From assembly GCF_000026545.1 (NCBI RefSeq), contig NC_011601.1: a stretch of 64,000 nucleotides of DNA, one strand, 5' to 3'. This DNA is from Escherichia coli O127:H6 str. E2348/69. Its GTDB lineage: Bacteria > Pseudomonadota > Gammaproteobacteria > Enterobacterales > Enterobacteriaceae. The notes beneath the pieces were generated by a model. That model made no database searches and had not been told where the DNA came from. It was given only the letters and a program-made list of their open reading frames with translations. Each line of letters starts with the position of its first letter. The first letter of the stretch is position 1. Of this stretch, positions 2,969 to 60,654 are shown piece after piece. A program made the position numbers and the translations under genes.

Positions 2969-2978
2969 TTTGATTGCC

Positions 2979-3887: not shown

Positions 3888-4180
3888 TGGCAATCCTCCC
3901 ATGGCAGAGCCGGGATACCGCTGGCGCGTGCCAGCAGGGCTTCCAGTCGTGCACGTAAAATGCAGTCCAGTGCGCCTTTGTCATCGACATTCAGCTGTAC
4001 GCCGCGCACGTTGTAGCGGGCGAGAACGTCCAGAATGGTGGTGCGAATTGCATCGCCAAACTGTTTCTCAACGCTGCTGTTGATTTGCAGGTCGATATCC
4101 TGCGTATCGAGTGGGGCGATGCGTATCATCACATCCCCAGACTCAAGGGTGCCTGCAACGGCGGGCTGGTTTATTTTCAT
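3884..4180 (-). CDS. citD: citrate lyase acyl carrier protein (gamma subunit)
   Basis: 98-aa ORF, operon position. Confidence 0.9.
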
Positions 4181-4194
4181 TTTTCACCTGTTTC

Positions 4195-5253: not shown

Positions 5254-5632
5254 AATAAATAGTATCCTGAAGGTGCATGTTGTTATCGATTTGCAACGAA
5301 TGTTGTTCAATGTTGCAAATTGATAACCTTTTATTTTCACTTGGGAGAAAGGGGGGCGATCGAGGTATATCTTTTTCTCCTTTCGCTATACATCCTAAGG
5401 AGTATTTTGGCGTGAAATTTTGATTTATTTCACATAGAGTTAGTGGTTTTTTATTTATTTAATGGTTTTAAGTTTTTTAACTAATGTAATTACGAAATAA
5501 CCCGCAGCTTTAAGTGATTTAATTGATTTAATGAATAAAATTTGCCACGATCATATTTAATATCTATGTATTTTGATTCAACATTTTAATTACATCCGTC
5601 AAAGAGGCTCGGGACAACCCGCAAGGAAAACA
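5254..5632. promoter_or_regulatory. AT-rich divergent promoter region between citC and dpiB
   Basis: ~380 bp AT-rich spacer between divergently oriented citC and dpiB start codons. Confidence 0.5.
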
Positions 5633-7291: not shown

Positions 7292-7940
7292 GGACGAAAC
7301 GCCGCTGGCAGAGATGCATGCGGAATATATTCGTCACATTCCCGGATTCAGTCAGATATTACTGGCGGGAAACCTGGCGCAGGCCCGAATGATGATCGAG
7401 CGTTTTAAGCCGGGGCTAATCTTGCTCGATAACTATCTTCCTGACGGTAGAGGGATTAATTTACTGCATGAACTGGTGCAGGCGCATTATCCCGGCGACG
7501 TGGTGTTTACCACTGCAGCCAGTGATATGGAAACGGTGTCTGAAGCCGTACGTTGTGGTGTATTTGATTATCTCATTAAGCCAATTGCCTATGAACGTCT
7601 GGGGCAAACGCTAACCCGTTTCCGCCAGCGTAAACATATGCTGGAAAGTATTGATAGCGCCAGCCAGAAGCAAATTGATGAGATGTTTAATGCCTATGCT
7701 CGCGGTGAACCCAAAGACGAACTGCCGACCGGCATTGACCCCTTGACGCTAAACGCGGTGCGAAAACTGTTTAAAGAGCCTGGTGTGCAACATACGGCAG
7801 AAACGGTGGCGCAGGCACTGACTATCAGCCGCACCACTGCCAGACGTTATCTTGAATATTGCGCCAGCCGCCATCTGATTATTGCTGAAATTGTTCACGG
7901 CAAAGTTGGCAGACCGCAACGCATATACCACAGTGGGTGA
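7260..7940 (+). CDS. dpiA: two-component response regulator (CitB/DpiA family)
   Basis: 226-aa ORF overlapping dpiB 3' end by 32 bp; receiver domain plus C-terminal HTH. Confidence 0.9.
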   Translation: MTAPLTLLIVEDETPLAEMHAEYIRHIPGFSQILLAGNLAQARMMIERFKPGLILLDNYLPDGRGINLLHELVQAHYPGDVVFTTAASDMETVSEAVRCGVFDYLIKPIAYERLGQTLTRFRQRKHMLESIDSASQKQIDEMFNAYARGEPKDELPTGIDPLTLNAVRKLFKEPGVQHTAETVAQALTISRTTARRYLEYCASRHLIIAEIVHGKVGRPQRIYHSG

Positions 7941-7980
7941 CATGATAAAGCCGGAGGAAACTTGCCTCCGGCATGACTAT

Positions 7981-9366
7981 TTACTTACCTGTGACCGCGG
8001 CTGCCGTTCCTGGCACCATCAGCTCTGTAGCAACGATAACAATCACCAAACCAACAAGCACCGGCACCGAGGTGCGTTTTACGACTTCAAACGGCGAGAT
8101 CTTCGCCATCCCGGCAACCGCAACGACTACGCCAGAAACGGGTGATAGGGTACGACCCAGGTTTGACGCCTGCAGCATCGGGATAGTCAAATACGCCGGG
8201 TTAATGCCGGAGGAGTGCGCCAGTTTCGGGATCATCTCAACAAACGCATAAAACGGCGCATTGCCTGAACCGGTCGTGACTGCCGCCAGCATTGTCAGGA
8301 TCACCAATACCAGCATCAGGATGATACTCGCCGAACCAAACGAGGTAGCGATAGAAATCAGACTTTGAATAAAGCCGATGGTGCTAAGCCCCTGAGCGAA
8401 TACCCCAGCGGCAACCAGCAGCATCACCACGTTAGCAAATGCATCTGCCATACCGCGATAAGCCACTTCCAGACCAGAGAAAACTTTCTGGGTATTAAAG
8501 CTGCGGATGAACTCCAGAATGGAGGCAATTAGCATACAAATCACCAGAATAGTGATGATGTGTAATTGCGGACCCCATTTGCCGTCAAAAATCAGCACTC
8601 CGATGATCGGCGTGAACGGCAAAATGGCATAAAACGCAGGGGCAGTGGTGGTGATTTCACTGACATCTAACATTTCATGAGAGATGTGCTCTTTTTTATC
8701 CAGATAACGTTGCCAGAAGAAGTGGGCGATTGCCATGCCGATAATTGCAGCAATTGAGATAGGCAGCGTTGTTTTGAAGGCGAAGTCAATCAGCGACATT
8801 TCGGAAGCCTGCGCCGCCAGCACCACATCCCCTGAAGTCGGTGCGAGAATAATCGCCGCCGGGGAGGCACAAATGGCAGCAGCTGCGCCACGACTGATAC
8901 CAACGTTTACCATCACCGGAAACAGGGTTGCCATCAGCAAAACACCCAGACCGGTTGCGGAAGAGACAGCCAGTGACATCAGACAGGCAACAAAATAGGC
9001 GGCAATCATCAGAAGGTAAGGGGAGTTAATATACTGCAATGGTTTTGACGCCAGCTTGACCACCATATCATTCGCGCCGATATGGGTCATGTAAGCGGCA
9101 AAGCCACACAGCATCATAATCATCATGCCGAGGTCGCCGCCGCGGCTCATTAGCAATATTTTAACGTATTCAACGATATCCGTGGCGCTGTAGCCTGTTG
9201 AAGCCTGGCTGGACGGTAACACTTTGTGCCCCATAATGGCACTGATAATCAGCAATAACAGGCCACCGACAAATAACACGCCAGTGGCAGAATACCCTTT
9301 AATGATGTAGCGAGCTACACCCACAATAACCACAACTCCAATAAGGAGTTCAATGAATGTCAGCAT
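7981..9366 (-). CDS. dcuC: anaerobic C4-dicarboxylate transporter DcuC
   Basis: 461-aa polytopic membrane ORF; conserved position after dpiA. Confidence 0.9.
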   Translation of the reverse strand: MLTFIELLIGVVVIVGVARYIIKGYSATGVLFVGGLLLLIISAIMGHKVLPSSQASTGYSATDIVEYVKILLMSRGGDLGMMIMMLCGFAAYMTHIGANDMVVKLASKPLQYINSPYLLMIAAYFVACLMSLAVSSATGLGVLLMATLFPVMVNVGISRGAAAAICASPAAIILAPTSGDVVLAAQASEMSLIDFAFKTTLPISIAAIIGMAIAHFFWQRYLDKKEHISHEMLDVSEITTTAPAFYAILPFTPIIGVLIFDGKWGPQLHIITILVICMLIASILEFIRSFNTQKVFSGLEVAYRGMADAFANVVMLLVAAGVFAQGLSTIGFIQSLISIATSFGSASIILMLVLVILTMLAAVTTGSGNAPFYAFVEMIPKLAHSSGINPAYLTIPMLQASNLGRTLSPVSGVVVAVAGMAKISPFEVVKRTSVPVLVGLVIVIVATELMVPGTAAAVTGK

Positions 9367-9942
9367 AATTTTTCCTGTCTCCAGGCCCCAAAGTAAATAA
9401 TAAAAAATCTCTAAAAATTAAAGAAAAAATATGCCGAATAAATCACCAGCGAATGCTGATTGAAATCAATAAAAATAGCTATTAACACATTGATATTGCT
9501 GTTTTTTATACCTGGATAACAAAATTCATTTTTGTAGTTAATCATTACAAAGCAATGATGTATGCAAAATTGATAAAATATTGAATTGATTTTGTTGGGA
9601 AATTGATAAATTTTTTGTTTAAAGAAACGGGCGTTCATTAACATGGCCCGGCAATACTGGGAATGTTTATTGATTGATTTTTATATTTGTTTAAAAAATA
9701 AGCGCATTTGTGCTTTTATCTATTGTTGTTTGTATTGGAGGAGTGTTCTTTGATTGAGAACGTTTGCGGGCAAAAAAAATCGTTTAAGTTTCCAGAACAA
9801 TCCGATAATATTCCCTCAAAATTGCACCGCATAAATATATAAAACACTCGGATTATTCCTTATATTGGTGCTGTTAAGGTTATGTTTATTTTAAACTGGT
9901 TATGCTAGTCGTGGTTTTTTGATAAATATCTCATGGTTACTA

Positions 9943-10503
9943 ATGAGCACTGGTAAATATATTTACGCACTTCTCTTTGTTTTTACTCAATTAGTCGGCA
10001 TTGAAGACGCTTCTGCTGACACACCTCAATGGCTGTCGACATTTAAAGAGAATGTTGCAGAAACATGGCAACAGCCACAACATTATGACTTGTACATACC
10101 CGCGATCACCTGGCATGCGCGTTTTGCCTATGACAAAGAAAAAACCGATCGCTATAACGAGCGACCGTGGGGCGGCGGTTTTGGTCAGTCGCGTTGGGAT
10201 GAAAAAGGAAACTGGCATGGCCTGTATGCCATGGCATTTAAGGACTCGTGGAACAAATGGGAACCGATTGCCGGATACGGATGGGAAAGTACCTGGCGAC
10301 CGCTGGCGGATGAAAATTTTCATTTAGGCCTGGGATTTACCGCTGGCGTAACGGCGCGCGATAACTGGAATTACATCCCTCTTCCGGTTCTACTGCCATT
10401 GGCCTCTGTGGGGTATGGCCCCGCGACGTTTCAGATGACCTACATTCCGGGTACCTACAACAATGGCAATGTGTACTTTGCCTGGATGCGCTTTCAGTTT
10501 TGA
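9943..10503 (+). CDS. pagP: lipid A palmitoyltransferase PagP (outer membrane)
   Basis: ORF-track frame starts at TTG 9919; first ATG at 9943 gives 186 aa; mature region ([21 protein letters not shown]...) recognisable. Confidence 0.85.
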
Positions 10504-10677
10504 GACAAATGAAGTTTTAGTAAATTCTTTAAAATCAACCACTAAAATAATTAACATCAAAAATAACGCGACTTTTATCACTTTTTAGTAAAGTTGCACT
10601 GGACAAAGCGTACCACAATTGGTGTACTGGTAACCGACACAGCATTTGTGTCTATTTTTCATGTAAAGGTAATTTTG

Positions 10678-10887
10678 ATGTCTAAGATTAAAGGTAACGT
10701 TAAGTGGTTTAATGAGTCCAAAGGATTCGGTTTCATTACTCCGGAAGACGGCAGCAAAGACGTGTTCGTACACTTCTCTGCAATCCAGACTAATGGTTTT
10801 AAAACTCTTGCTGAAGGTCAGCGTGTAGAGTTCGAAATCACTAACGGTGCCAAAGGCCCTTCTGCTGCAAACGTAATCGCTCTGTAA
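10678..10887 (+). CDS. cspE: cold-shock protein CspE
   Basis: 69-aa CSD protein [20 protein letters not shown]...; ATG verified at 10678; long 5' leader. Confidence 0.9.
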
Positions 10888-10906
10888 GATACGTCAGCAA
10901 GAATTC

Positions 10907-10936
10907 AAAACCCGCTTAATCAGCGGGTTTTTTTTG
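10907..10936. terminator. bidirectional rho-independent terminator between cspE and crcB
   Basis: hairpin cccgcttaatcagcggg flanked by T-run on + strand and T-run on - strand. Confidence 0.7.
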
Positions 10937-10940
10937 GTCT

Positions 10941-11324
10941 TTAGTGTGCGGTTGAGGCCGAAAACAGCCAGAAAGCCAGTGCGGTCATGGCAAAAGACCC
11001 CAAAAGATTGACGAAAACGTTCAGTAACGCCCAGCCAAAGCGGCCCTCTTGTAACAAAAACACCACTTCTGCCGAAAATGTTGAGAAGGTTGTTAGACCG
11101 CCACAAAATCCGGTGGTGATTAATACTTTCCACACTGGATCAATGTTCGTCATCCTGCTGAACCAGGCGAATCCCATTCCTATGATGAATGCCCCAATCA
11201 GGTTTGCTGCCAGCGTCCCCAACGGAATCGCCTGATGCAGCGGGTTAAATCGCATACTTAACAGCCATCTCGCCACGCTTCCCGTACCACCGCCGATAAA
11301 AACTGCTAAAAGAAGTTGTAACAC
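10941..11324 (-). CDS. crcB: fluoride ion channel CrcB/FluC
   Basis: 127-aa four-TM ORF. Confidence 0.85.
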
Positions 11325-11410
11325 TGCAAAATCCTGCTATTTGATTTGTATGAATGATAAGTGTAACGCCGAATAATCGCCGTTGGCGAATTTTACGACT
11401 CTGACAGGAG

Positions 11411-12205
11411 GTGGCAATGCTGGTTGCCGCAGGACAGTTTGCTGTTACATCTGTGTGGGAAAAGAACGCTGAGATTTGTGCCTCGTTGATGGCGCAGGCG
11501 GCGGAAAACGAGGTTTCGCTGTTTGTCCTGCCGGAAGCATTACTGGCGCGTGATGATCATGATGCGGATCTTTCGGTTAAATCAGCACAGCTGCTGGAAG
11601 GCGAATTCCTCGACCGTTTACGGCGAGAAAGTAAACGTAACATGATGACGACAATTCTGACGATTCATGTTCCTTCAACACCGGGGCGCGCGTGGAATAT
11701 GCTGGTGGCGCTACAGGCAGGAAACATCGTCGCCCGTTATGCCAAACTGCATCTCTATGATGCATTTGCCATTCAGGAATCACGCCATGTTGATGCTGGT
11801 AATGAAATAGCTCCGTTACTGGAGGTGGAAGGGATGAAGGTCGGTCTGATGACCTGTTATGACTTACGCTTTCCAGAGCTGGCGCTGGCACAGGCATTAC
11901 AGGGAGCTGAAATCCTGGTACTTCCTGCCGCCTGGGTTCGTGGGCCGCTCAAAGAGCATCACTGGTCAACGTTGCTTGCCGCTCGTGCGCTGGATACCAC
12001 CTGTTATATGGTGGCGGCGGGGGAGTGCGGGAATAAAAATATCGGGCAAAGCCGGATTATAGATCCCTTTGGCGTCACCATTGCGGCAGCGTCAGAAATG
12101 CCTGCACTCATTATGGCGGAAGTGACGCCCGAACGTGTGCGTCAGGTACGCGCGCAACTGCCCGTCTTAAACAACCGTCGCTTTGCGCCGCCGCAATTAT
12201 TATGA
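11411..12205 (+). CDS. ybeM: carbon-nitrogen hydrolase (nitrilase superfamily) protein
   Basis: 264-aa intact ORF; position matches ybeM. Confidence 0.75.
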
Positions 12206-12333
12206 TGTTTTTTTACTCGGCGCTTGATTCACCTTGTTACAGATTGCTATTGTGTGCGCGCGTCGAATGACCGTTAATATTCTCTGGTTTTTAAGGCGCG
12301 TTCTGTTGCCGGTTATATGTCAAGAAGGTATCT

Positions 12334-12537
12334 ATGGGTGAGATTAGTATTACCAAACTGCTGGTAGTTGCGGCGCTGGTCGTTCTGCTGTTTGGGACTA
12401 AGAAGTTACGTACGCTGGGCGGAGACCTTGGAGCGGCCATTAAAGGGTTCAAGAAGGCGATGAATGATGACGATGCTGCGGCGAAAAAAGGCGCAGACGT
12501 TGATCTTCAGGCTGAAAAGCTCTCTCATAAAGAGTGA
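12334..12537 (+). CDS. tatE: Sec-independent protein translocase component TatE
   Basis: 67-aa ORF with N-terminal TM helix and amphipathic region, TatA/E family. Confidence 0.9.
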
Positions 12538-12581
12538 CGTGGCGAGCAGGACGCTCCCTCAATATCTTGTTCGATACAAAA

Positions 12582-12607
12582 ACCCGCTTCAAAAAGCGGG
12601 TTTTTTA
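12582..12607. terminator. bidirectional rho-independent terminator between tatE and lipA
   Basis: hairpin acccgcttcaaaaagcgggt with T-runs on both strands. Confidence 0.7.
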
Positions 12608-12636
12608 TCAGACAGATGTAAGTAATTATTACAGGA

Positions 12637-51406: not shown

Positions 51407-51417
51407 AACAATAAAAA

Positions 51418-51447
51418 GCGGCAGGGATATTCTCTGCCGCTTTTTTT
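51418..51447 (+). terminator. rho-independent terminator of nagE
   Basis: gcggcagggatattctctgccgc followed by ttttttt. Confidence 0.7.
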
Positions 51448-51455
51448 GTCTGAGA

Positions 51456-52736
51456 TTACATTGGGAAGATAAAAACAGCGCCTGCACAAAGCGCCAGAAT
51501 GCGGATGAGATACATTGGTACAGAGAACACCCAGAATTCGGGAAGTTTGTATTTCCCCATTCCGAGGATCATGGCTGGCATTCCGTCAATAGGCATATAG
51601 CCGCCGTTCCAGCCTGAAATCACCACCGCAATCGCTGCAGCGGTCGGGTTAAGCCCAAGGCTGGTACAGGCGGCAATGGCGATGGGGGCAAAAATATAAA
51701 CAGACCCCATATTCGAACCCGTGAAGGTGGCGCAGGTACTGGTAAGCAAAGCAAAGGCGACAATAAATACAAATGGTGAGACGCCAGAACCGAGCACACC
51801 TGCAACGGCATCGCCAACCATCGCCGTAAAGCCGGTGCCCGCCAGTGCATCAGCTACACCGATCACCCCCGCCATCATTAAAATGACCGGCGCTCCCATA
51901 TGATCGCGAACTTCTTTAAAGTCCAGTACATCGATCATCAGAACAAACGCACCCGCAAGACCCGGAATAACGAAGGCGATATTTCCCAGAATGTTCATTA
52001 GCATCATGCCGATAACGCTGACAGCGAATGCGGCAATAGTGCAATATTCTTTCCAGGCAGGAAGGGCGTTAAACGTTTCCTCGCGTGCCGCCAGCGCATC
52101 CTCGGAAGCATCCGCAATGGGATGATCCGGAAGAAAACGGTAGGCAATAAGACTCCATGCGAGGAACGCCGCTGACATGATGAGATTCACCAGCGCAAAG
52201 CGCCCCATCGAAATCTCCTGATGAAAACCCGCGGTTTCGAGTACGGTCGCCGTAACGCCAAAGAGAAGCGCGAGATTGATAGGAAGAAGCGGGTGGTTGG
52301 TGGCAAATCCCAGGGGCATCATTAATTTCGATGTTGGTAGCTTTTTACTGTACGGAATGGTGGATACCAGCGACAGAATCAGCACGTAATAACCGGTCGC
52401 GCCGGTGCCTGCAAGACTGGCACCCAGCATAACAATGACTAACAACAGCCCGTAGCTGCGGTAACTGCCTTTATTGACCAGGCTTATCATCGCAGATTTA
52501 ACGTTGCTGATAAGCCGGGTTTTTTGTAGCGCTGCCATGACCACCATAAACCCTGCAATCATCACCACGCTTGGATTGACGAATCCGGCAAAAGCCTGTT
52601 GAACGGTCGAAAGTCCCGAGACAACCAGCAATAAACACGCAAGCAGTGGCGGTGCGCCAAATGGCATTTTGTCCGACATGATCAGCACGATCATCAGGAC
52701 CAGTATTCCTAATGCCAGGATCATTTCCATTGTCAT
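51456..52736 (-). CDS. ion-transporter-superfamily anion permease (putative organic/sugar-acid transporter)
   Basis: ORF-track frame 51456..52982 trimmed to ATG at 52736 (MTMEMILALG...) with RBS aggagaga; ~427-aa polytopic membrane protein; last gene of leftward island operon. Confidence 0.7.
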   Translation of the reverse strand: MTMEMILALGILVLMIVLIMSDKMPFGAPPLLACLLLVVSGLSTVQQAFAGFVNPSVVMIAGFMVVMAALQKTRLISNVKSAMISLVNKGSYRSYGLLLVIVMLGASLAGTGATGYYVLILSLVSTIPYSKKLPTSKLMMPLGFATNHPLLPINLALLFGVTATVLETAGFHQEISMGRFALVNLIMSAAFLAWSLIAYRFLPDHPIADASEDALAAREETFNALPAWKEYCTIAAFAVSVIGMMLMNILGNIAFVIPGLAGAFVLMIDVLDFKEVRDHMGAPVILMMAGVIGVADALAGTGFTAMVGDAVAGVLGSGVSPFVFIVAFALLTSTCATFTGSNMGSVYIFAPIAIAACTSLGLNPTAAAIAVVISGWNGGYMPIDGMPAMILGMGKYKLPEFWVFSVPMYLIRILALCAGAVFIFPM

Positions 52737-52749
52737 TTTTTCTCTCCTT

Positions 52750-53220
52750 TTAGGCTTCCAGCATGTCGCGCGGTACCTTAAAGACCGCTTTGCGTACTGA
52801 CGTAGCCGCGCCAATCGCGCACAGCGCCTGGTGAGGTTCCTCAGGCATAAAGACGGCGAAATCACCGGGGTGTAGAGTGATGGCGACACTGTTTTCAGGG
52901 GATGGGGCGATAAACAGATCGGGCTTACGTTCTTCATCGTTTTCGCGAGCGATGGGCCGCGTTCCCGCATTAATGCCCTCACAACCAGTAATCACCACCT
53001 GGATATCGGCCCACAGATGGTGATACTCCGTATGGCGGAGTTCGGCGGGTTGCGTGTCTGAAGTTCCCAGCGTGCAGAACCACCGACATCCTTCAGGTTG
53101 CCAGCGACCGTCCTCTCTGGCGGATAACGCCGATAACGAACACTCCGGGCACAGCAGAATATTTCTCACCCAGGCGGGAAGCCCCGCCAGCGACAAATGG
53201 TTGAGATTACCGATAATCAT
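52750..53220 (-). CDS. YhcH/YjgK/YiaL-family protein (NanQ-like)
   Basis: 156-aa ORF with PGDFAVFMPEEPH motif resembling E. coli YhcH; ATGA overlap with upstream gene. Confidence 0.75.
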   Translation of the reverse strand: MIIGNLNHLSLAGLPAWVRNILLCPECSLSALSAREDGRWQPEGCRWFCTLGTSDTQPAELRHTEYHHLWADIQVVITGCEGINAGTRPIARENDEERKPDLFIAPSPENSVAITLHPGDFAVFMPEEPHQALCAIGAATSVRKAVFKVPRDMLEA

Positions 53221-54386
53221 GATGCCTGCCCCTTAACCCACTCGGGGGAGATGCGCACGTACTTGATGGCCTGACGCCACCAGGTGTAAGCGATATGTAG
53301 CGTACCGTCCGGGCTTTGTTTGATGCTGGGGTAGGAGAACTCACGATTTAGCTTTTCCAGGGAATTGTTGGTCATGCAGTTGCCGTCGCCTTCATCGAGA
53401 TTGCGCCGCCACGGCCAGCTTTTCCCACCATCGGCAGAAATCGCTACCGTCATCGGCGCGCGTGGGGCCCCCCAGAAAGCGGAGCGTCCGACGGCTGTCG
53501 GTTCTTTGCGGCTGTCGTCGCCATCGTCGATTTCGTCATAAAGCGACGCGCGACGTTCTACTGCGCCTGCCGCACTCATCGCGTTGTACACCAGCGCCAG
53601 TTCGCCGCTGGCAAGCGTCGTTACCTGAATAGACGAATTGTTGTTGGGCAATTCGGTAGCTTGCGGCACCGACCAACTCTCGCCGTTGTCCACTGAATGG
53701 CTGATATAGATGTTGTCTGCCCAACGGCTGCGAAAGAGAGCAACCAACGTACCGTCGTGCAGCATTGTGATATTCATATGAACGCAGCCGAGACTTTGCG
53801 GCACCTCGACATCGCGCCATGAGTGACCACCGTCAGCGGAAATTTTCACTGCGCTGATATCATCATTGCCGACCCATTTTTCGCCGGGTTGGGTACGGCA
53901 ATAAAAGACGGGAAGCAGCCAGTTACCGTTATCAAGCACCGTGATCGGCTGGCGAATGAACGTGCCGGGTTTATCGAGCAGGGTGGCAATCTCGCCCCAG
54001 GTTTGCCCAAGGTCGTCAGACTTACGGTAGCGGACGATGGCCGTGTCCTGATTACCGGATATTTGTGCGGTCCATAGCAGCCACAGCACGTTATCCGGCG
54101 CGAGAAACAGCACCGGGTTTTGCTCTGAACGCGTGTCATCGTGGGAAAGTTTGACCGCATCGCTCCACTGCGTTCTGCCAGCGGGCAATCGTGATCCCCA
54201 GACAGAAATATCGGCAATACCTTCCTGTGTTCCCGCAAACCAGACGCACATTAATGCGCCATCCGGCATTGGCAGAATATTCGCCGCGTGGTTTTGCGGG
54301 CAGGACGAGGGCAGCATGGCGGTAAGCACATGCGAATCGTTTTCGGATGGACGGATGACGCCGTCACGAATAAGGGCTACAGACAT
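53217..54386 (-). CDS. BNR/Asp-box repeat protein, sialidase-fold, no signal peptide
   Basis: 389-aa ORF with four Asp-boxes (SDDLGQTW, SADGGHSW, SVDNGESW, SADGGKSW); N-terminus lacks hydrophobic signal; RBS ggag upstream. Confidence 0.75.
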   Translation of the reverse strand: MSVALIRDGVIRPSENDSHVLTAMLPSSCPQNHAANILPMPDGALMCVWFAGTQEGIADISVWGSRLPAGRTQWSDAVKLSHDDTRSEQNPVLFLAPDNVLWLLWTAQISGNQDTAIVRYRKSDDLGQTWGEIATLLDKPGTFIRQPITVLDNGNWLLPVFYCRTQPGEKWVGNDDISAVKISADGGHSWRDVEVPQSLGCVHMNITMLHDGTLVALFRSRWADNIYISHSVDNGESWSVPQATELPNNNSSIQVTTLASGELALVYNAMSAAGAVERRASLYDEIDDGDDSRKEPTAVGRSAFWGAPRAPMTVAISADGGKSWPWRRNLDEGDGNCMTNNSLEKLNREFSYPSIKQSPDGTLHIAYTWWRQAIKYVRISPEWVKGQAS

Positions 54387-54421
54387 AGTTAGACTCCATC
54401 TTAAAGTTGGTAATAGATTTA

Positions 54422-55180
54422 TTAATGCGAGTGCGATTCATGCGTTTCGATCAATGTCGAAACTTTTTTATTTCTTCTTTCACGGATAATATTGAGTGTC
54501 TCAACACTTAATGAGAAAAATATCGCGAAGTAGAGATACTCTTTGGCAATATGAATGTTGAGACTATCGGCAACCAGCAATACACCGACAAACAATAAAA
54601 AGGTTAACGCCAGTATTTTTATTGACGGCGTGGCGTTAACGAAATCACCAATTGTTTTCGCCGCAAACATCATGACACCGACGGCAATCATTACGGCGGC
54701 AATCATGATAAATATATGCTGAGAAAGGCCGACGGCGGTGATCACCGAATCCAGGCTAAACACGATATCGAGCAGCATTATCTGTACAATGGCACCGCAC
54801 AACGACAGTTGCCGCGATCCGCTGCCATGTTCGTCTTCCTGCGCGGGCGACAGCTCTTCGCGTATCTCCTGTATCGCTTTATAAATCAGGAACAGCCCGC
54901 CCCCGAGCAGAATCAACGTGCGGAACGAAATCTCCAGCGTCAGCACGGTAAAAAGCGGCTGGGTAATATGTGAAAGCCACGCAATGGATATCAGCAATAA
55001 TATCCGCATAATCATCGCGCAGCTTAAACCCAGTTTACGCGCCATATTTTGTTGTGATAACGGAAGTTTTGCCACCACCAGTGAAAGAAAAATAATATTA
55101 TCCACCCCAAGAATAATTTCCAGAAAGGTGAGGGTAATTAAAGTGAGCCAGATATCTGGCTGCATAAACCACAAAAACAT
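54422..55180 (-). CDS. TerC-family integral membrane protein
   Basis: 252-aa polytopic ORF (…TFLEIILGVDNIIFLSLV…); visibly more AT-rich than flanking island genes. Confidence 0.7.
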   Translation of the reverse strand: MFLWFMQPDIWLTLITLTFLEIILGVDNIIFLSLVVAKLPLSQQNMARKLGLSCAMIMRILLLISIAWLSHITQPLFTVLTLEISFRTLILLGGGLFLIYKAIQEIREELSPAQEDEHGSGSRQLSLCGAIVQIMLLDIVFSLDSVITAVGLSQHIFIMIAAVMIAVGVMMFAAKTIGDFVNATPSIKILALTFLLFVGVLLVADSLNIHIAKEYLYFAIFFSLSVETLNIIRERRNKKVSTLIETHESHSH

Positions 55181-55239
55181 GGGGTAATCCTTTATTCTCT
55201 TTATCTAAACTTTATAGCGGGCTGGATAATAGAGTTAAT

Positions 55240-56127
55240 TTAATTAATGTTATAATGACGAATAATTTGTTGAATCTCGCTGATCTGTTCAGGCGTGAAA
55301 TTAACCGCGTAGCGGCTATCACCAACATCATGCCCCATAAGCTGCAACGCTTTTTTCACCGCAGCCGGGGAGAATGCTACTTTATAAAGATCGGTACGCA
55401 GGCCCGTTACACTCTCCTGTGCTTCATAAGACCCTTCAATATCACCGGCATGGAAGCGAGACCAGATGGCATTGATTTCTCGCGGCGCGATGTTGGCGAG
55501 CCCAGAGATACAGGCTGAACATCCCTCGACAAACCCTTTATGGATCAGCGAATCCGGGCCGTTGAGCACATTAAAGCCGTCAATGTCGCGCACCGCATCG
55601 AGAAAACCCTTCAGGCTTTCGTCGCTTCCGGCGCTGTCTTTAATCCCAATGATATTGGGGTGCGACGCCAGAGCACGCGCGGTTTCTGGCTGGATCGTAT
55701 TGCCAGTGCGGGCCGGGATGTTATAGAGAAACATCGGAATGCTCAGTGCGTCGGCAATTGCGCTGTAATGCGCAATCAACTCTTCCTGTTTCAGCGGTAC
55801 GAAGTAAGGGGCAATGACCGACACGGCATCTACGCCAAGTTTTTCAATCTGCTGACCCAGACGAATCGTTTCGCGCGTAGAGATCTCGCCAATGTGTGCC
55901 ACGACCGGCGCACGACCAGCCACTTCATCCACGCAGGTTTGCGTAACGCTGAGCTTCTCCTGTTCATTCAACACAAAAAATTCGCCGTTGGTGCCGCCGC
56001 AAAAAATCGCGTTACCCGCTTCCAGTTGACGATTCACCTGCACTTTTAACGCCGGGATATTCAGACTGCCGGTCGCGGTAAACGGGGTGACGATAGCGGT
56101 TAATACACCTTCAATGGTTTTCGGCAT
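55240..56127 (-). CDS. DapA/NanA-family class I aldolase
   Basis: 295-aa ORF with GTNGEF and Schiff-base lysine context IGIKDS. Confidence 0.8.
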   Translation of the reverse strand: MPKTIEGVLTAIVTPFTATGSLNIPALKVQVNRQLEAGNAIFCGGTNGEFFVLNEQEKLSVTQTCVDEVAGRAPVVAHIGEISTRETIRLGQQIEKLGVDAVSVIAPYFVPLKQEELIAHYSAIADALSIPMFLYNIPARTGNTIQPETARALASHPNIIGIKDSAGSDESLKGFLDAVRDIDGFNVLNGPDSLIHKGFVEGCSACISGLANIAPREINAIWSRFHAGDIEGSYEAQESVTGLRTDLYKVAFSPAAVKKALQLMGHDVGDSRYAVNFTPEQISEIQQIIRHYNIN

Positions 56128-56130
56128 GAT

Positions 56131-57288
56131 TTATTCCTTAAATTGATGTTGCGGAAACAGTGTTTGGTAAATGGCCTGTACGTCCTGTAGATCAAGCTGG
56201 CACGGCACATTGTTCATAAGGCGCTTCACGTTCAGTGCCGCCTCGCTAAGAGAGGCAATATCCTCTGGCGGTACGCCGAGATCTGCGAGATTGTTGGGTA
56301 GCTTGAGTTGATTGACTAATGCCTGTAACCAGGTCACCAGGGCATGAGATTTTTCTTCCGCGCTCAGGGCGGTTTCCGCATCGGGAATGCAATCCCAGAC
56401 CCGGGCAAATTTCTCGACCGCCCAGGGGCGAACAAACGCCATGCACGGCGCCAGCAAGATGGCATTCGCGACGCCATGCGGCAGATGATATTTGCCACCT
56501 AACGGGTAGGAGAGCGCATGAACGAGATGCGTGCCCGCATGGGTTATCGCTACGCCGCCATAGTAAGACGCCCACAGCATTTCCAGTTTTGCGCGCAGAT
56601 CCTGAGGATCGTTCACGGCGGGTTGAATGTGCCGGAAAAGTTTACTTAACCCAGTCAGCGCCGCGTTATCGCTGACCGGATTTGCCACGGTCGCGGTAAA
56701 ACACTCCAGTAAGTGGCAAAGAGCATCAATGCCCGTGGACGCCGCAATATGCGCAGGCATGCTGGTGGTCAGTTCCGGGAAAAGCGCCACATAGTCTGGT
56801 AACAGCATCTGGGAAATAATACCCACCTTCGTGCTTTGCTCAGGGATTGCCAGAATCGCATTCGGCGTGGCTTCTGAGCCGGTTCCGGCGGTTGTAGGAA
56901 TCAACCATGATTGCACCCGCTGAGTTGGTTTTTCACCCGCAAGCAGCGCATCCAGCCCCGGAGATTGTGGATGGCAAAGCACCGATAGCAGCTTTGCCAC
57001 ATCCAACACGCTGCCACCGCCGATCCCGACCACCACATCAAAAGAGGCATCGCCAAGGACATCCATTAGCTGGCGCACATCATGATGCGTGGGCTCTGCG
57101 GGCACATTATCGATAACGTTAACCTGCGGGCAGTGCTGTTCCAGTAAGGCGCGAATCTGCTGCACACCGTCGAGCTGCGCAATATTACGGTCAGTGACCA
57201 GCAGCATTTTTCTGATGTCGGGTAAGAGCGACGTCAGGGAAGGGATAGCGCCTGCGCCGCTCAGTATCGTGCTATTGATAATTACCAC
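56131..57288 (-). CDS. iron-containing alcohol dehydrogenase family oxidoreductase
   Basis: 385-aa ORF, GTG start with RBS gagagg; GGGS motif (GIGGGSVLDVAK) and His-rich metal site (THAGTHLVHALSYPLGGKYHLPHG). Confidence 0.8.
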   Translation of the reverse strand: MVIINSTILSGAGAIPSLTSLLPDIRKMLLVTDRNIAQLDGVQQIRALLEQHCPQVNVIDNVPAEPTHHDVRQLMDVLGDASFDVVVGIGGGSVLDVAKLLSVLCHPQSPGLDALLAGEKPTQRVQSWLIPTTAGTGSEATPNAILAIPEQSTKVGIISQMLLPDYVALFPELTTSMPAHIAASTGIDALCHLLECFTATVANPVSDNAALTGLSKLFRHIQPAVNDPQDLRAKLEMLWASYYGGVAITHAGTHLVHALSYPLGGKYHLPHGVANAILLAPCMAFVRPWAVEKFARVWDCIPDAETALSAEEKSHALVTWLQALVNQLKLPNNLADLGVPPEDIASLSEAALNVKRLMNNVPCQLDLQDVQAIYQTLFPQHQFKE

Positions 57289-57457
57289 AAATAACCTCTC
57301 TTCTGGTGATTGAATTCAATCATTCAAAATGCCGTAGCCTACGTAACATGGTCTAATTTTATAATTTATTCGAGTGATTAATAACTTGAGCTTGCTCACA
57401 TTTAATCAATTGTGATTGAATATAATCATTATTATCATAAAACAACCTGGAGTGATG
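57289..57457. promoter_or_regulatory. divergent promoter/operator region of the island with two 16-bp palindromic sites
   Basis: perfect palindrome tgattgaattcaatca (57306..57321) and 14/16-identical tgattgaatataatca (57413..57428), each just upstream of one operon's first gene. Confidence 0.55.
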
Positions 57458-58693
57458 ATGGAAAAGGGAATCACTAAGCCGAGCATTCTCGTCGTTGCCG
57501 ATGATTTCACGGGAGCCAACGACGCGGGGGTAAGCCTGGCGCAGGTGGGGCATACAGTTGATGTGGCCTTTGAAATGCCTTATCACGGTGATGCCAGCGT
57601 ATGGGTGATTAACAGCGACAGCCGGGCGATGGATCCTAAGCTGGCGGCGATGAAAATAACCTCGCTGATGAGTCATCTCCCTCTGGCGAATAACCCGCCG
57701 CTCGTGATTAAAAAGATAGATTCCACGCTTCGAGGCAATATCGGCGCAGAAATTGAAGCCCTGATGAAGGCATGCGGTATAACGGGCGCAGTGATTGCCC
57801 CCGCATTTCCTCAGGCGGGAAGGACCACAGTGGCCGGTGAGTGTTGGGTAAACGGTGTGCGGATAACGGAAACCGAGTTTGCCAGCGATCCGAAAACCCC
57901 GGTATTGAGCGCCCGAATTGCGGACATCATCCGGTTGCAGACGGCCATTCCATGCCAGCCCGTTACGGTTTCTCAGCTCAGCCATTTGTCTTATGAGCAA
58001 CCGTGGATTGGCGTGATAGATGCGCAGACGGACAGCGACCTGGATCGCATCGCTGCCGCTGTGATGCAGGCTAAACAACCGCTACTGCTGGTCGGCTCCG
58101 CTGGTATTTGTGATGCCGTTGCCCGGCGCTCCGCGATTATGCCGCCACCCACCGTGCTGGCCATTATTGGTTCAATGAGCGAAATCGCTCAACGGCAGAT
58201 CGCCACACTGCATTCACACCCACGTATCACACAGATATACGTCGATGTTGAACACATTCTGGCAGGCAATGCCAGTGACTATGACGCGCGTATTGTGCAG
58301 GCCTTGCAGAAAGGCGACCACTGCATTGTCCACACCTGTAACGATTCTGTAGCAAGGCATCAGATCGACACCCTTTGCCAGCGTTGGCAGATGAGTCGCG
58401 CTGCACTTGGGGAAAAAATTTGTCGGTTTCTTGGCGAACTTACCCGGCAAGTTCTGCTTCGCACAATGCCCGATGCGCTTTATCTCTCTGGTGGCGATGT
58501 CGCAATGGCAACAGCCAGTGCGTTAGGCGCGACCGGGTTTCGTATTACGGGGAAGGTGGCGCAATGCGTTCCATATGGTCACTTTCTGGGCGGCGTCTGG
58601 TCCCGTTCGGTGATGACGAAAGCCGGTGGGTTTGGCGATGAGACCACGTTGCATCAGGTTCTGAATTTTATCGAGGAGAAGCGTAGTGAATAA
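57458..58693 (+). CDS. four-carbon acid-sugar kinase family protein (YgbK/OtnK-like)
   Basis: ORF-track frame from 57416; ATG at 57458 with GGAG 5 nt upstream; ILVVADDFTGANDAG and KKIDSTLRGNIGAE motifs. Confidence 0.8.
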   Translation: MEKGITKPSILVVADDFTGANDAGVSLAQVGHTVDVAFEMPYHGDASVWVINSDSRAMDPKLAAMKITSLMSHLPLANNPPLVIKKIDSTLRGNIGAEIEALMKACGITGAVIAPAFPQAGRTTVAGECWVNGVRITETEFASDPKTPVLSARIADIIRLQTAIPCQPVTVSQLSHLSYEQPWIGVIDAQTDSDLDRIAAAVMQAKQPLLLVGSAGICDAVARRSAIMPPPTVLAIIGSMSEIAQRQIATLHSHPRITQIYVDVEHILAGNASDYDARIVQALQKGDHCIVHTCNDSVARHQIDTLCQRWQMSRAALGEKICRFLGELTRQVLLRTMPDALYLSGGDVAMATASALGATGFRITGKVAQCVPYGHFLGGVWSRSVMTKAGGFGDETTLHQVLNFIEEKRSE

Positions 58694-59672
58694 CATTATT
58701 GCGGTAACGATGGGCGATCCGGCGGGTATTGGCCCGGAGATCATTATTAAATCCCTGAGCGAAGCCGGGCTTGCTGGTACCCCGGTGGTGGTGGTGGGCT
58801 GTGTGCGCACGCTGCGACGTATTATGGCGATGAATATCACGCCGCAGGCAGAGTTACGCGTCATTCAAAAGGTGTGCGACGCCCACTTTGCTCCCGGCGT
58901 GATTAACGTGATGGATGAGCCTCTGGCTAACCCCGATGCGCTGACACCTGGTGTGGTACAGGCTGCGGCAGGCGATTTAGCGTATCGCTGTATCAAACGT
59001 GCAACGGCCCTGGCCTTATCAGGCGAGGTGAAAGCCATAGCCACTGCGCCGTTGAATAAAGAAGCGCTGCATCTTGGCGGGCATAACTATCCGGGGCATA
59101 CGGAATTGCTGGCCCATCTTACCGGCAGCAAAGAGTACGCGATGGTGCTCTATACCGATAAGCTCAAGGTTATCCATATTTCGACTCACATCTCACTGCG
59201 TAAATTCCTGGATACTTTGAATGGTGAAAGGGTCAAAACGGTTATTCGAGTTGCGAACCACTTCCTGAAACGTGTCGGCATTGAGCGTCCGCGTATTGCC
59301 GTGGCGGGTGTAAATCCACATGCAGGGGAACACGGTTTATTCGGCACTGAGGAAATCGAGATTATCGCACCTGCGATTGAAGCAATGCAGGCCGAAGATA
59401 TTGATGTTACTGGCCCGTGCCCGCCAGATACCGTGTTCATGCAGTGCCATGAAGGGCTATTCGATATGGTGGTGGCTATGTACCATGATCAGGGGCATAT
59501 CCCTTTAAAACTGCTTGGATTTTATGATGGGGTGAATATCACCGCCGGGTTGCCATTTATTCGCACTTCTGCCGACCACGGCACCGCGTTTGATATTGCC
59601 TGGACAGGAAAAGCCAAGTCTGAGAGCATGGCAGTTTCCATCCAGTTAGCAATGCAGATTTCGCGAGAATAA
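58686..59672 (+). CDS. PdxA-family NAD-dependent dehydrogenase (PdxA2-like)
   Basis: 328-aa ORF, GTG start overlapping kinase stop by 8 bp; [14 protein letters not shown] and NPHAGE...YHDQG...[18 protein letters not shown] motifs. Confidence 0.8.
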
Positions 59673-59673
59673 A

Positions 59674-60435
59674 ATGAAGGGATATAACCGGTTAGAGCAG
59701 ATCATGGATTACCTGAAAAGCCATAATCTGGTCACCGTTGATGAGCTGGTGGCGGTAACCAATGCGTCGCCGGCTACGATTCGTCGAGACCTGATAAAAC
59801 TCGATGAGCAGGGTGTTATCAGCCGTACACACGGCGGTGTGACCCTCAACCGGTTTATTCCTACCCAACCGACTACCCATGAGAAAATGCAGCGCAGCCT
59901 GGCGGAAAAACATGCTATCGCCAGCGCAGCGGCGTCAATGGTCAAAGCGGGGGATTCCGTCGTCCTTGATGCCGGTACGACAATGATTGAACTTGCGCGG
60001 CAGATTACACATTTACCGCTTCGCGTGATCACCAGCGACCTGCATATCGCGCTTTTTTTGGCTGAATTCAAGCAAATTGAAGTGACGATTATCGGCGGAC
60101 GTATCGACGACTCCAGCCAGTCCTGCATTGGCGAACATGGTCGTAAATTGCTGCAAAATACCTGGCCGGACGTGGCATTTTTAAGCTGTAACAGCTGGGA
60201 TCTTGAAAAGGGTATTACAGCACCCACGGAAGAGAAAGCCGCACTAAAACGCGATCTTATCGCGCATGCTTCGCGCAAAATTCTCCTGGCTGACAGCTCA
60301 AAATACGGTTCATGGTCGCTGTTTAATATCGCGCATCTTAATGAACTGACAGAGATTATTACGGATAGTCAGCTTGATGGGCAGACGCGTAGAACGCTTG
60401 CGTCCTTGTCGACGCGTTTAATCATAGCCGACTAA
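59674..60435 (+). CDS. DeoR-family transcriptional regulator
   Basis: 253-aa ORF; N-terminal HTH (…[21 protein letters not shown]…), C-terminal sugar-phosphate-binding domain. Confidence 0.8.
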
Positions 60436-60654
60436 TCTATGACTCTGCGGCCAGCTCATCCGGCAATTTAATAAATGCGTCAGGCTGGCGACGTTTGGCC
60501 TTACGTTTCCAGCGCGAGGATCTGCTGGCAGTAGCGCAGAAAACGCCCCAATATCTTACGCAAAACCATTTTTTCGCTAACTAACAGTTGTCAGCCTGTC
60601 CCGCTTATAAGATCATACGCCGTTATACGTTGTTTACGCTTTGAGGAATCCACG

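Follow-up and report, generated by a model that had tools for sequence, protein, structure and literature searches.

A nine-gene accessory island between nagE and glnS of Escherichia coli is predicted to channel a sugar acid into D-threonate catabolism

Between nagE and glnS of Escherichia coli O127:H6 str. E2348/69 lies an island of nine genes that we read as one DeoR-controlled catabolic pathway, with 3-deoxy-D-lyxo-hept-2-ulosaric acid (Dha, a constituent of rhamnogalacturonan-II side chain D in pectin) or a small compound derived from it as its most plausible substrate; taken whole, this reading has a probability of roughly 0.5. That the genes form a single pathway supplying D-threonate to the kinase DtnK and the dehydrogenase PdxA2 is likely, because genes of both arms co-occur across taxa and an operator-like motif is shared by 46 of 46 comparable loci. 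The choice of Dha itself, made on chemical logic, is tentative and falls a little short of an even bet.

The window (the whole 64,000-nucleotide stretch analysed) is 100% identical to the E2348/69 RefSeq sequence. The nine-gene block described in the initial annotation was recovered with every reading frame in the same place and orientation, in agreement with RefSeq, and HMM searches upheld all nine family calls (Fe-ADH, DHDPS/NanA, TerC, BNR_2, YhcH/DUF386, anion permease, DUF1537 kinase, PdxA and DeoR). The features are as follows.

51413–51445, plus strand: nagE terminator hairpin (inverted repeat, 15-nt arms, 93% complementary, then a T-run)
51448–60577, no strand: whole accessory island, nagE–glnS (9,130 bp, nine intact genes)
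51456–52736, minus strand: anion permease, ion-transporter superfamily, annotated SLC13, 426 aa (Pfam)
52750–53220, minus strand: YhcH/YjgK/YiaL (DUF386) protein (TIGR00022, 97.3 bits, cutoff 45.5)
53217–54386, minus strand: cytoplasmic sialidase-fold (BNR_2) protein (BNR_2 by HMM)
54422–55180, minus strand: TerC-family membrane protein (NCBIfam YkoY-type TerC, 85.6 bits, below cutoff)
55240–56127, minus strand: DHDPS/NAL-family class I pyruvate aldolase (HMM and active-site motifs)
56131–57288, minus strand: iron-containing alcohol dehydrogenase, Fe-ADH (HMM; nearest structures)
57289–57457, no strand: divergent control region common to both arms (intergenic, Fe-ADH to dtnK, 169 bp)
57307–57322, no strand: operator-like perfect palindrome TGATTGAATTCAATCA (TGATT-N6-AATCA)
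57413–57428, no strand: second operator-like palindrome TGATTGAATATAATCA, overlapping a promoter-like site of the dtnK arm
57458–58693, plus strand: dtnK, D-threonate kinase, DUF1537 family (NF047819, 533 bits, cutoff 450)
58686–59672, plus strand: pdxA2, decarboxylating D-threonate-4-phosphate dehydrogenase, yielding DHAP and CO2 (NF002891, 680 bits, cutoff 583)
59674–60435, plus strand: DeoR/GlpR-family repressor (DeoR-family matches, all below equivalog cutoffs)

Base-by-base comparison with the empty site of K-12 W3110, where glnS follows nagE after 202 bp (about 200 bp had been anticipated), set the island edges: 46 bp of the K-12 spacer are exchanged for the 9,130 bp of 51448–60577. The terminator hairpin is also present in K-12 and the left edge begins directly after it, as the initial annotation had placed the junction; no integrase, transposase, tRNA or meaningful flanking direct repeat was found at the island, the first two and the last in line with that annotation. 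The island occurs in about one-fifth of strains (1,047 of 5,426 complete E. coli genomes, 98.6–100% identity over an internal 2.9-kb probe), always chromosomal and single-copy. Carriers are B2-type, for example E2348/69, UTI89 and Nissle; in strain BEN2908, IS1 breaks the TerC gene. A 2026 study lists the island as the uncharacterised 'GR 6 nagE..glnS' (PMC12928451), and we found no published characterisation of it as a whole.

DtnK and PdxA2 both pass curated equivalog cutoffs, and on this ground we assign D-threonate as the C4 end of the pathway. The nearest structure to DtnK is 4XFM (321 bits), reportedly assayed as D-threonate kinase; it shares ~93% identity with the kinase that a Pectobacterium cluster of the island type encodes. 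For kinases of distant clusters, the 3-oxo-tetronate kinase model gives a much poorer match than that of DtnK. A catabolic module of DtnK and PdxA2 was reportedly described by Zhang et al. (PNAS, 2016) in Salmonella (STM0162/0163) and Pectobacterium; like it, the island has a kinase–dehydrogenase pair, here overlapping by 8 bp, with a DeoR regulator adjoining. That work is cited in PMC9997740 and PMC10971088. The initial view that the block resembles no characterised operon thus holds for the island as a whole and fails for its right arm, three of the nine genes, which corresponds to the published module. The pair has also been read as serving pyridoxal-phosphate synthesis or 4-hydroxy-L-threonine detoxification (PMC12928451), and DUF1537/PdxA2 pairs can phosphorylate 4-hydroxy-L-threonine and replace PdxA (PMC9997740, PMC10971088). 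We find this hardly credible here, since E. coli already has pdxA and this reading would leave the co-occurring BNR protein, permease, aldolase and reductase unexplained.

The two arms diverge from a control region of 169 bp (GC about 0.46), bearing out the proposal of two divergent units around an AT-rich centre. The 64-kb window contains just two copies of TGATT-N6-AATCA, both in this region, where hexamers at 57410–57438 are promoter-like by consensus match only. The motif recurs in the equivalent intergenic region of all 46 loci with divergent architecture, and a DeoR gene accompanies it in every divergent cluster; distant clusters lacking this arrangement have sigma-54 or GntR regulators in place of DeoR. 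The DeoR protein is presumed to bind the palindromes and would thereby repress both arms.

Among 82 loci with a BNR homologue, Fe-ADH is present in 63 and DtnK, PdxA2 and the DHDPS aldolase in 61 each; BNR, aldolase, aldehyde reductase, DtnK and PdxA2 stand together in about 60, across Proteobacteria and Firmicutes (Enterobacterales, Vibrio, Pasteurellaceae, Gilliamella, Rhodocyclaceae, Alphaproteobacteria, Bacillus, Paenibacillus and Negativicutes). Gene order is reshuffled among them, and in Firmicutes the genes form a single co-directional operon. An SDR gene, absent in E. coli, is found in 58 loci. Related loci also carry a 2-hydroxyacid dehydrogenase–MFS pair and Nramp-like genes.

Could the island be two independent neighbours, a D-threonate unit (dtnK–pdxA2–deoR) beside a sialic-acid-like unit of permease, YhcH, BNR protein, aldolase and ADH? 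Some Pantoea loci hold SSF, BNR and SDR without the remaining genes, P. stewartii-type loci lack the kinase, and Salmonella presumably has its dtnK–pdxA2 unit without left-arm genes. By the identities quoted in PMC12928451, the Salmonella pair is a distinct locus, its PdxA2 being 75% identical to that of the island. Independence is nevertheless unlikely: both sets persist together in ~60 of 82 loci of several phyla despite the reshuffling, and in Firmicutes as co-directional operons, a single operator-bearing region serves both arms, the E. coli right arm lacks a dedicated transporter, and without DtnK and PdxA2 the C4 product of aldolase and reductase would have no onward route.

On the left arm, the aldolase falls below every equivalog cutoff (dapA 189.9 against 206; nanA 110 against 382). 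Its motif LYNIPARTG appears to align with Y133/R138 of DapA rather than with L142 of NanA; 59 of 61 homologues keep this DapA-type arginine, and the Schiff-base lysine motif IGIKDS is conserved too. Through R138, DapA binds a C4 aldehyde-acid by its carboxylate, and NanA has leucine there. Fe-ADH reaches no equivalog cutoff; its closest solved structures are methanol dehydrogenase, the lactaldehyde reductase FucO and 1,3-propanediol oxidoreductase. Because these nearest relatives are reductases of small hydroxy-aldehydes, we assign Fe-ADH, which initially had no role, as the putative bridging aldehyde reductase. A distant locus, L088, argues for both functions, since an HpcH/HpaI (class II) aldolase there replaces the class I enzyme and an aldo-keto reductase replaces Fe-ADH, while BNR, kinase and PdxA are retained. 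The highest-scoring matches of the L088 aldolase are GarL and HpaI, enzymes that cleave dicarboxylates, the HpaI substrate (4-hydroxy-2-oxoheptanedioate) being C7.

The permease matches Pfam CitMHS (1.4e-21) and Na_sulph_symp (3.5e-12) but reaches only 50 bits against the DASS model (cutoff 198.6), and no solved-structure relative was found; its frame is readable from a GTG at 52982 (508 aa), the annotated and conserved form being 426 aa (51456–52736). Other taxa mostly place an SSF, TRAP, MFS or ABC carrier in this slot, SSF symporters being commonest; the carriers at these loci (CitMHS/SLC13-like, TAXI-TRAP, MFS-ACS, SSF) are all organic-anion types. TerC occurs in six to seven loci, always with an SLC13-type permease, and recurs in a distant cluster (L090). 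A Klebsiella orthologue matches Pfam TerC, no riboswitch was found 5' of the gene, and the protein possibly exports a divalent metal in connection with the permease. YhcH is regarded as accessory, being present in just 49 of 82 loci.

The order of functions resembles the E. coli sialic acid system: sialidase-fold propeller, YhcH-family protein, class I Schiff-base aldolase. The propeller here is cytoplasmic, with His203 at the catalytic Glu position and the first triad arginine probably missing, and the later steps fall to a reductase, a C4 kinase and PdxA2 where that system has NanK/NanE/NagA/NagB. Salvage of Neu5Ac, Kdn or Kdo through a sialidase inside the cell, followed by a NanQ-like anomerase and a NanA-like lyase, would suit the RefSeq names ('sialidase family protein', 'NanQ anomerase/TabA/YiaL'), the GH33-like fold and the passed YhcH family model. 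Such salvage is very improbable. NanA and NanQ cutoffs are missed by wide margins (YhcH scores 91.5 against 160 for NanQ), arginine apparently stands where NanA has Leu142, and the island has no nanK, nanE or nagA-type genes. The C6, C6 and C5 neutral sugars from Neu5Ac, Kdn and Kdo could be used neither by a C4 acid-sugar kinase nor by PdxA2, and carriers are mostly plant-associated. The general scheme proposed initially, in which a 2-keto-3-deoxy acid sugar passes through BNR protein, pyruvate cleavage, kinase and PdxA2, fits and is strengthened; of the substrates it left open, Neu5Ac, Kdn and Kdo are disfavoured and a C7 dicarboxylic ulosaric acid favoured by the DapA-type arginine, the C4 kinase and stereochemistry.

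In the single pathway that we prefer, the permease is predicted to import the sugar acid, either as such or as a dehydrated form or small ketoside from which the BNR protein, judged by its fold, would release free Dha or form it by hydration. The YhcH protein may speed ring opening for the aldolase, as an anomerase analogous to NanQ. The aldolase is predicted from family, active-site arginine and its replacement elsewhere to cut this C7 2-keto-3-deoxy diacid between C3 and C4, giving pyruvate and the C4 aldehyde-acid D-threuronate (OHC-CHOH-CHOH-COO-), which Fe-ADH would reduce to D-threonate. DtnK would then form 4-phospho-D-threonate and PdxA2 would decarboxylate it oxidatively to DHAP and CO2, by chemistry established for homologues and family membership from HMMs here; the net conversion would be C7 to pyruvate, DHAP and CO2. 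A close parallel is the glucarate/galactarate route, where a 2-keto-3-deoxy diacid is likewise cleaved to pyruvate and an aldehyde-acid that is reduced and phosphorylated (GarL aldolase, GarR tartronate-semialdehyde reductase, GarK glycerate kinase), and the L088 aldolase belongs to the GarL/HpaI family. The E. coli island differs in its class I aldolase and Fe-ADH reductase, and its aldehyde-acid is C4 where that of Gar is one carbon shorter (C3), hence the need for a final oxidative decarboxylation by PdxA2.

A C7 dicarboxylate is suggested by the DapA-type arginine, the L088 aldolase and the organic-anion carriers. We favour Dha because, by our own derivation (checked against the Kdo descriptor 4R,5R,6R,7R), C5 and C6 of the D-lyxo acid become, after cleavage and reduction, (2S,3R)-trihydroxybutanoate, exactly the D-threonate used by DtnK. 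A pectic origin is indicated by the carriers, mostly plant-associated or pectinolytic genera and gut symbionts of plant feeders, by an extra KdgM-family porin at an Aeromonas locus and by a GH28 polygalacturonase-like gene adjoining a Pantoea paralogue. Several points tell against Dha: it is a rare sugar, SSF carriers are atypical for dicarboxylates and the permease of E. coli stays below the cutoff of the DASS model. Free Dha would not call for a BNR protein, yet this protein belongs to the core set; its catalytic centre departs from GH33, and it is closer to GH33 than to the known Dha-hydrolase BT_1020 (GH143) of the Bacteroides thetaiotaomicron RG-II locus. SDR and TerC have no place in the scheme.

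The same logic might serve another ulosonic or ulosaric acid or an acid-sugar glycoside, its C4 aldehyde-acid leading to D-threonate or D-erythronate; candidates are a 2-keto-3-deoxy-heptarate stereoisomer, an ulosaric acid of algal or bacterial polysaccharide, or a still-unknown plant metabolite. The aldolase–reductase–kinase–PdxA2 evidence is equally compatible with this; PdxA2-type enzymes also use 4-phospho-D-erythronate, the BNR active site is non-canonical, and the SDR, dehydrogenase–MFS, TerC and Nramp-like genes hint at chemistry outside the Dha scheme. We rate it as possible but doubtful: the Dha configuration yields precisely D-threonate, the kinase scores above the cutoff of the D-threonate model, the taxa and the pectin genes nearby speak for material from plant cell walls, and we know of no other natural 3-deoxy-heptulosaric acid.

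Zhang et al. (2016) are said not to have identified a natural source of D-threonate. Unlike their module, the island adds six genes that on our reading generate D-threonate intracellularly out of a larger sugar acid. The last two steps, DtnK and PdxA2, are the sole part characterised before; what is new here is the evidence joining both island arms into one pathway.

The window matches the E. coli E2348/69 chromosome at 100% identity over the query, and the nine open reading frames that the initial annotation had placed between nagE and glnS are all present and intact in RefSeq. They form a leftward and a rightward arm about an AT-rich control region (ORF scan and RefSeq).

Genes of the nagE–glnS island
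51456–52736, minus strand, permease
52750–53220, minus strand, YhcH-family protein
53217–54386, minus strand, BNR/sialidase-family protein
54422–55180, minus strand, TerC
55240–56127, minus strand, DHDPS-family protein (aldolase)
56131–57288, minus strand, Fe-ADH
57458–58693, plus strand, dtnK
58686–59672, plus strand, pdxA2
59674–60435, plus strand, DeoR

The suspected insertion relative to K-12 is borne out by strain W3110, in which the nagE–glnS spacer is just 202 bp. Base-by-base comparison delimits the island to 51448–60577, 9,130 bp standing in place of 46 bp of K-12 sequence; as first proposed, its left junction lies at the nagE terminator, directly 3′ of the hairpin. None of the marks of a mobile genomic island was found: the annotation holds no integrase or transposase, in keeping with the earlier reading, and no tRNA target; no informative direct repeats flank the island edges; and GC content (0.43–0.58) is like that of the flanks, the sole deviation being the control region, whose AT-richness a composition check upheld.

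Using an internal 2.9-kb island probe, we found carriers among 1,047 of 5,426 complete E. coli genomes, with one copy each, all chromosomal and 98.6–100% identical. Plasmid origin in E. coli is ruled out (0/1,047 copies plasmid-borne). Carriers include UTI89, Nissle 1917, one O25b:H4-ST131 strain and BEN2908, and Klebsiella possesses the same nine-gene block at another chromosomal site. The island has been listed among 'uncharacterized features' as 'GR 6 nagE..glnS', common to B2 ExPEC strains and to AIEC LF82 (2026; PMC12928451); a literature search on its function returned nothing beyond this descriptive BEN2908 paper. Only eight ORFs are counted there, probably because an IS1A element splits the island TerC gene of BEN2908 (NZ_LR740776.1, 702404–705816). 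AGR4587 (NZ_CP097360.1) likewise has an IS1 within the same 2.9-kb stretch. The empty spacer is itself variable, containing an IS200C in TOE51 (NZ_CP069090.1, 3405303–3406330) and, in several strains without the island, a gene annotated as 'hypothetical protein'.

All of the original family calls hold in profile-HMM tests. The kinase passes the D-threonate kinase model NF047819 (533.4 bits, cutoff 450), scoring only 106 bits against the 3-oxo-tetronate kinase model, and the PdxA paralogue exceeds the cutoff of NF002891, the model for D-threonate-4-phosphate dehydrogenase (680.3 bits against 583). The two genes are adjacent, with an 8-bp overlap. By these models the right arm is the known DtnK/PdxA2 module, predicted to phosphorylate D-threonate and then to yield DHAP and CO2. 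The view that the operon resembles nothing characterized fails for the right arm, leaving the 'unknown operon' half known; the remaining seven proteins reach no equivalog cutoff. Kinases of distant clusters likewise score much higher against the DtnK model than against that for 3-oxo-tetronate kinase. A Pectobacterium cluster of island type encodes a kinase ~93% identical to structure 4XFM; the Pectobacterium kinase solved as 4XFM was reportedly assayed as a D-threonate kinase. Comparing window 57458–58693 with island-type loci of other genomes (L003, L005, L006, L007, L027 and L035), DtnK is 46–60% identical in every genus pair versus 70–87% for neighbouring proteins, making it by far the fastest-evolving cluster member. 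Replacement of the DtnK gene, considered for the low E. coli–Klebsiella identity, was rejected because the same rapid evolution is seen in every pair.

The left-arm aldolase falls below the dapA equivalog TIGR00674 (189.9, cutoff 206.15) and far below the NanA models (TIGR00683, 110.6 against 382; NF003164, 144.9 against 281). Aligned to DapA and NanA sequences, it appears to retain equivalents of DapA Y133, R138 and K161 (motif LYNIPARTG aligning with Y133/R138), has Phe at the Y107 position and GTNGE for GTTGE, and places Arg opposite NanA Leu142. In DapA, R138 binds the carboxylate group of the C4 aldehyde-acid aspartate semialdehyde; Leu142 is the NanA residue at this position. The R138-type Arg is kept in 59/61 cluster aldolase homologues. 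A second DapA is ruled out by the missed cutoff and the missing Y107, and a NanA by its far lower scores and the Arg at the Leu142 position; on this comparison the protein is a member of the DHDPS/NAL superfamily, not DapA. The Fe-ADH has lactaldehyde, propanediol and methanol dehydrogenases as nearest relatives. The YhcH protein passes its family model TIGR00022 (97.3 versus 45.5) and misses the NanQ equivalog (91.5, cutoff 160).

The BNR protein has the six-bladed β-propeller sialidase fold of GH33, without the GH33 Tyr/Glu pair. Profile alignments put Y352 on the sialidase nucleophile Tyr and R219 and R309 on the second and third triad Args; where 4bbw and 4fj6 have the Glu partner (TEAQ), the BNR protein has an invariant His203 (VHMN). 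Around the first triad Arg, the N-terminal profile aligns only weakly with the PDB (E = 0.014). Judged by spacing, and with the numbering of S. typhimurium NanH, the invariant H33 presumably takes the first triad Arg position and R371 that of the stabilising Glu. With this altered catalytic centre, the BNR protein is a candidate hydrolase or hydratase. A BNR_2 protein 49% identical to that of E. coli lies on a 9.2-Mb chromosome (L089:10001–11182) among fungal-type neighbours—a Zn-cluster transcription factor, a Sugar_tr transporter and a SET domain—a context suggesting that the family crosses kingdoms.

The permease misses the DASS model TIGR00785 (50.3 bits, cutoff 198.6), with CitMHS its best Pfam match (1.4e-21); these matches class it as a divergent anion carrier of the ion-transporter superfamily. 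Its reading frame continues upstream, where it overlaps the YhcH gene, as far as a GTG at 52982 (508 aa; 51456–52982); what is conserved is the 426-aa protein that starts at 52736. An Rfam scan of the island found no riboswitch and no other RNA element, and the idea of a Mn riboswitch serving TerC was rejected for that reason. A TerC-family gene (with DUF475) is also found next to a distant form of the cluster (L090:2645–3688), and in a Lysinibacillus MAG the transporter position is taken by an Nramp-like divalent-metal carrier (L059:8618–9970). With the E. coli TerC, these make the connection to metal transport a recurring one. We speculate that TerC (E. coli, L090) and the Nramp-like carrier could serve divalent metal co-transport with a chelating polycarboxylate.

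We consider it probable (roughly 0.8) that the whole block constitutes one conserved, co-regulated pathway. The control region contains two palindromes, TGATTGAATTCAATCA and TGATTGAATATAATCA. Their pattern TGATT-N6-AATCA is absent elsewhere in the 64-kb window and recurs in the equivalent intergenic region of 46/46 loci of divergent layout. The palindromes are best read as a putative operator through which the DeoR repressor would control both arms. Promoter and terminator scans performed no better than on shuffled sequence.

A genome scan with a 12-sequence BNR alignment as query and one genome per species gave 80 loci, and partners were counted over 82 BNR loci in total. Fe-ADH and an SSF symporter each occur in 63 of the 82; the DtnK-like kinase, PdxA2 and DHDPS-family aldolase in 61 each; a small SDR in 58; and DeoR and YhcH in 49 each. 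Two distant BNR contexts (P0129 and P0130) lie on contigs too short to show neighbours. Close orthologues with the same divergent layout are found in Klebsiella, Kosakonia, Pantoea, Yersinia and Aeromonas, and the core is kept, its genes rearranged, in Vibrio, Pasteurellaceae, Gilliamella, Rhodocyclaceae, Alphaproteobacteria, Bacillus, Paenibacillus and Negativicutes. Firmicutes clusters form one co-directional operon with a sigma-54 activator. Transporters are exchanged freely (SSF, SLC13-like, TAXI-TRAP, MFS-ACS and Opp-type ABC), with a minority form—SLC13-like permease plus TerC, lacking SSF and SDR—in E. coli, Klebsiella, Kluyvera and Aeromonas. The cluster occupies the same site next to marRAB in Klebsiella (L003; TerC + SLC13) and Kosakonia (L007; SSF + SDR), so that transporter modules appear to have been swapped in place.

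Several loci depart from this arrangement. Pantoea and 'Enterobacter cancerogenus' (L029–L033 and L072, about 1,600–14,400) have a second BNR copy, 75% identical, in an SSF–BNR–SDR trio that lacks aldolase, ADH, kinase and PdxA2 and adjoins a sugar ABC transporter, a GH28 PglB-like polygalacturonase, a tartrate dehydrogenase and a sigma-54 activator. Loci of Erwinia/Pantoea (L034 and L047) and Bacillota (Lucifera; L080 and L083) insert a D-2-hydroxyacid dehydrogenase (PGDH/GhrB-like) and a D-galactonate-type MFS anion carrier between the aldolase and SSF genes, a pair that may let a related acid enter by a side route. Pantoea carries the cluster, whole or in part, on non-mobilizable megaplasmids of 260–470 kb (for example, NZ_CP045242.1, NZ_CP017591.1 and NZ_CP014127.2), and the kinase and DeoR genes are missing from copies of the P. 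stewartii type.

Distant locus L088, whose BNR protein is 46% identical, retains the BNR, DeoR, PdxA and kinase genes. In place of the class I aldolase it has an HpcH/HpaI class II enzyme, best matching GarL (2-dehydro-3-deoxyglucarate aldolase) and HpaI (4-hydroxy-2-oxoheptanedioate aldolase), and an aldo-keto reductase stands in for Fe-ADH. These replacements bear out the proposed roles, the conserved functions being aldehyde reduction and pyruvate-aldolase cleavage of a 2-keto-3-deoxy diacid. The same substrate class follows from the pathway's end: DtnK needs a C4 acid sugar, which together with a pyruvate aldolase implies a C7 2-keto-3-deoxy acid, and for an aldehyde reductase to yield an aldonic acid the fragment must already carry a carboxylate at its far end, implying a diacid. 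The DapA-type Arg supports a C4 aldehyde-acid product from such a diacid. Kdo, Kdn and Neu5Ac were rejected as substrates for the wrong product size and the wrong aldolase residue.

To our knowledge, the one natural 3-deoxy-heptulosaric acid is Dha (3-deoxy-D-lyxo-hept-2-ulosaric acid), found in side chain D of rhamnogalacturonan-II (RG-II). The BNR protein would act after import on a small ketoside or dehydrated form of Dha; its place among the core members makes free Dha an improbable import. The aldolase would then cleave D-lyxo Dha to pyruvate and D-threuronate, and Fe-ADH would reduce the latter to (2S,3R)-trihydroxybutanoate, which is D-threonate (stereochemistry from Fischer projections, checked against the known Kdo descriptor 4R,5R,6R,7R). 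This predicted product matches the right arm exactly. The scheme resembles a one-carbon-longer copy of the glucarate/galactarate route (GarL, GarR and GarK), its front end (propeller, YhcH and lyase) being like that of the sialic-acid system. The ecology of carriers agrees with Dha: taxa in the scan are mostly plant pathogens, epiphytes, endophytes and plant-feeding gut symbionts. Also in line with it are an extra KdgM-family porin in the Aeromonas cluster, the GH28 PglB-like gene and sugar ABC transporter next to the second Pantoea copy, and the megaplasmid location of the Pantoea cluster. A test of BT_1020 (GH143), the Dha-hydrolase of the Bacteroides thetaiotaomicron RG-II locus, as the closest structural or sequence relative of the BNR protein was negative. 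A weak point is that SSF carriers are not classic dicarboxylate transporters, and the majority-form SDR, the 2-hydroxyacid dehydrogenase–MFS pair and TerC fall outside the scheme's steps. We rate Dha as the island substrate at slightly under even odds. A literature search found no catabolic pathway for Dha and no link of D-threonate or DtnK to pectin, RG-II or Dha; that the island would be the first catabolic route for this C7 ulosaric acid is a shade more tentative again.

On sequence analysis, the island is probably a sugar-acid catabolic operon made up of known families. Its right-arm module was known already; new are the evidence for one conserved, co-regulated pathway and a specific substrate hypothesis. 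If true, the scheme would provide the orphan DtnK/PdxA2 pathway with a natural D-threonate source and a reason for such a dedicated pathway to exist, add a new family of cytoplasmic sialidase-fold enzymes whose catalytic centre is remodelled (His in place of Glu) and fill a gap in pectin biology, the fate of Dha after its release from RG-II. B2-phylogroup E. coli (ExPEC, AIEC, EPEC E2348/69 and Nissle) would have a private dietary-pectin nutrient, probably supplied by cross-feeding on RG-II fragments released by acid, heat or Bacteroides, and this would set B2 strains, among them most ExPEC lineages and the probiotic Nissle, metabolically apart from the other four fifths of the species.
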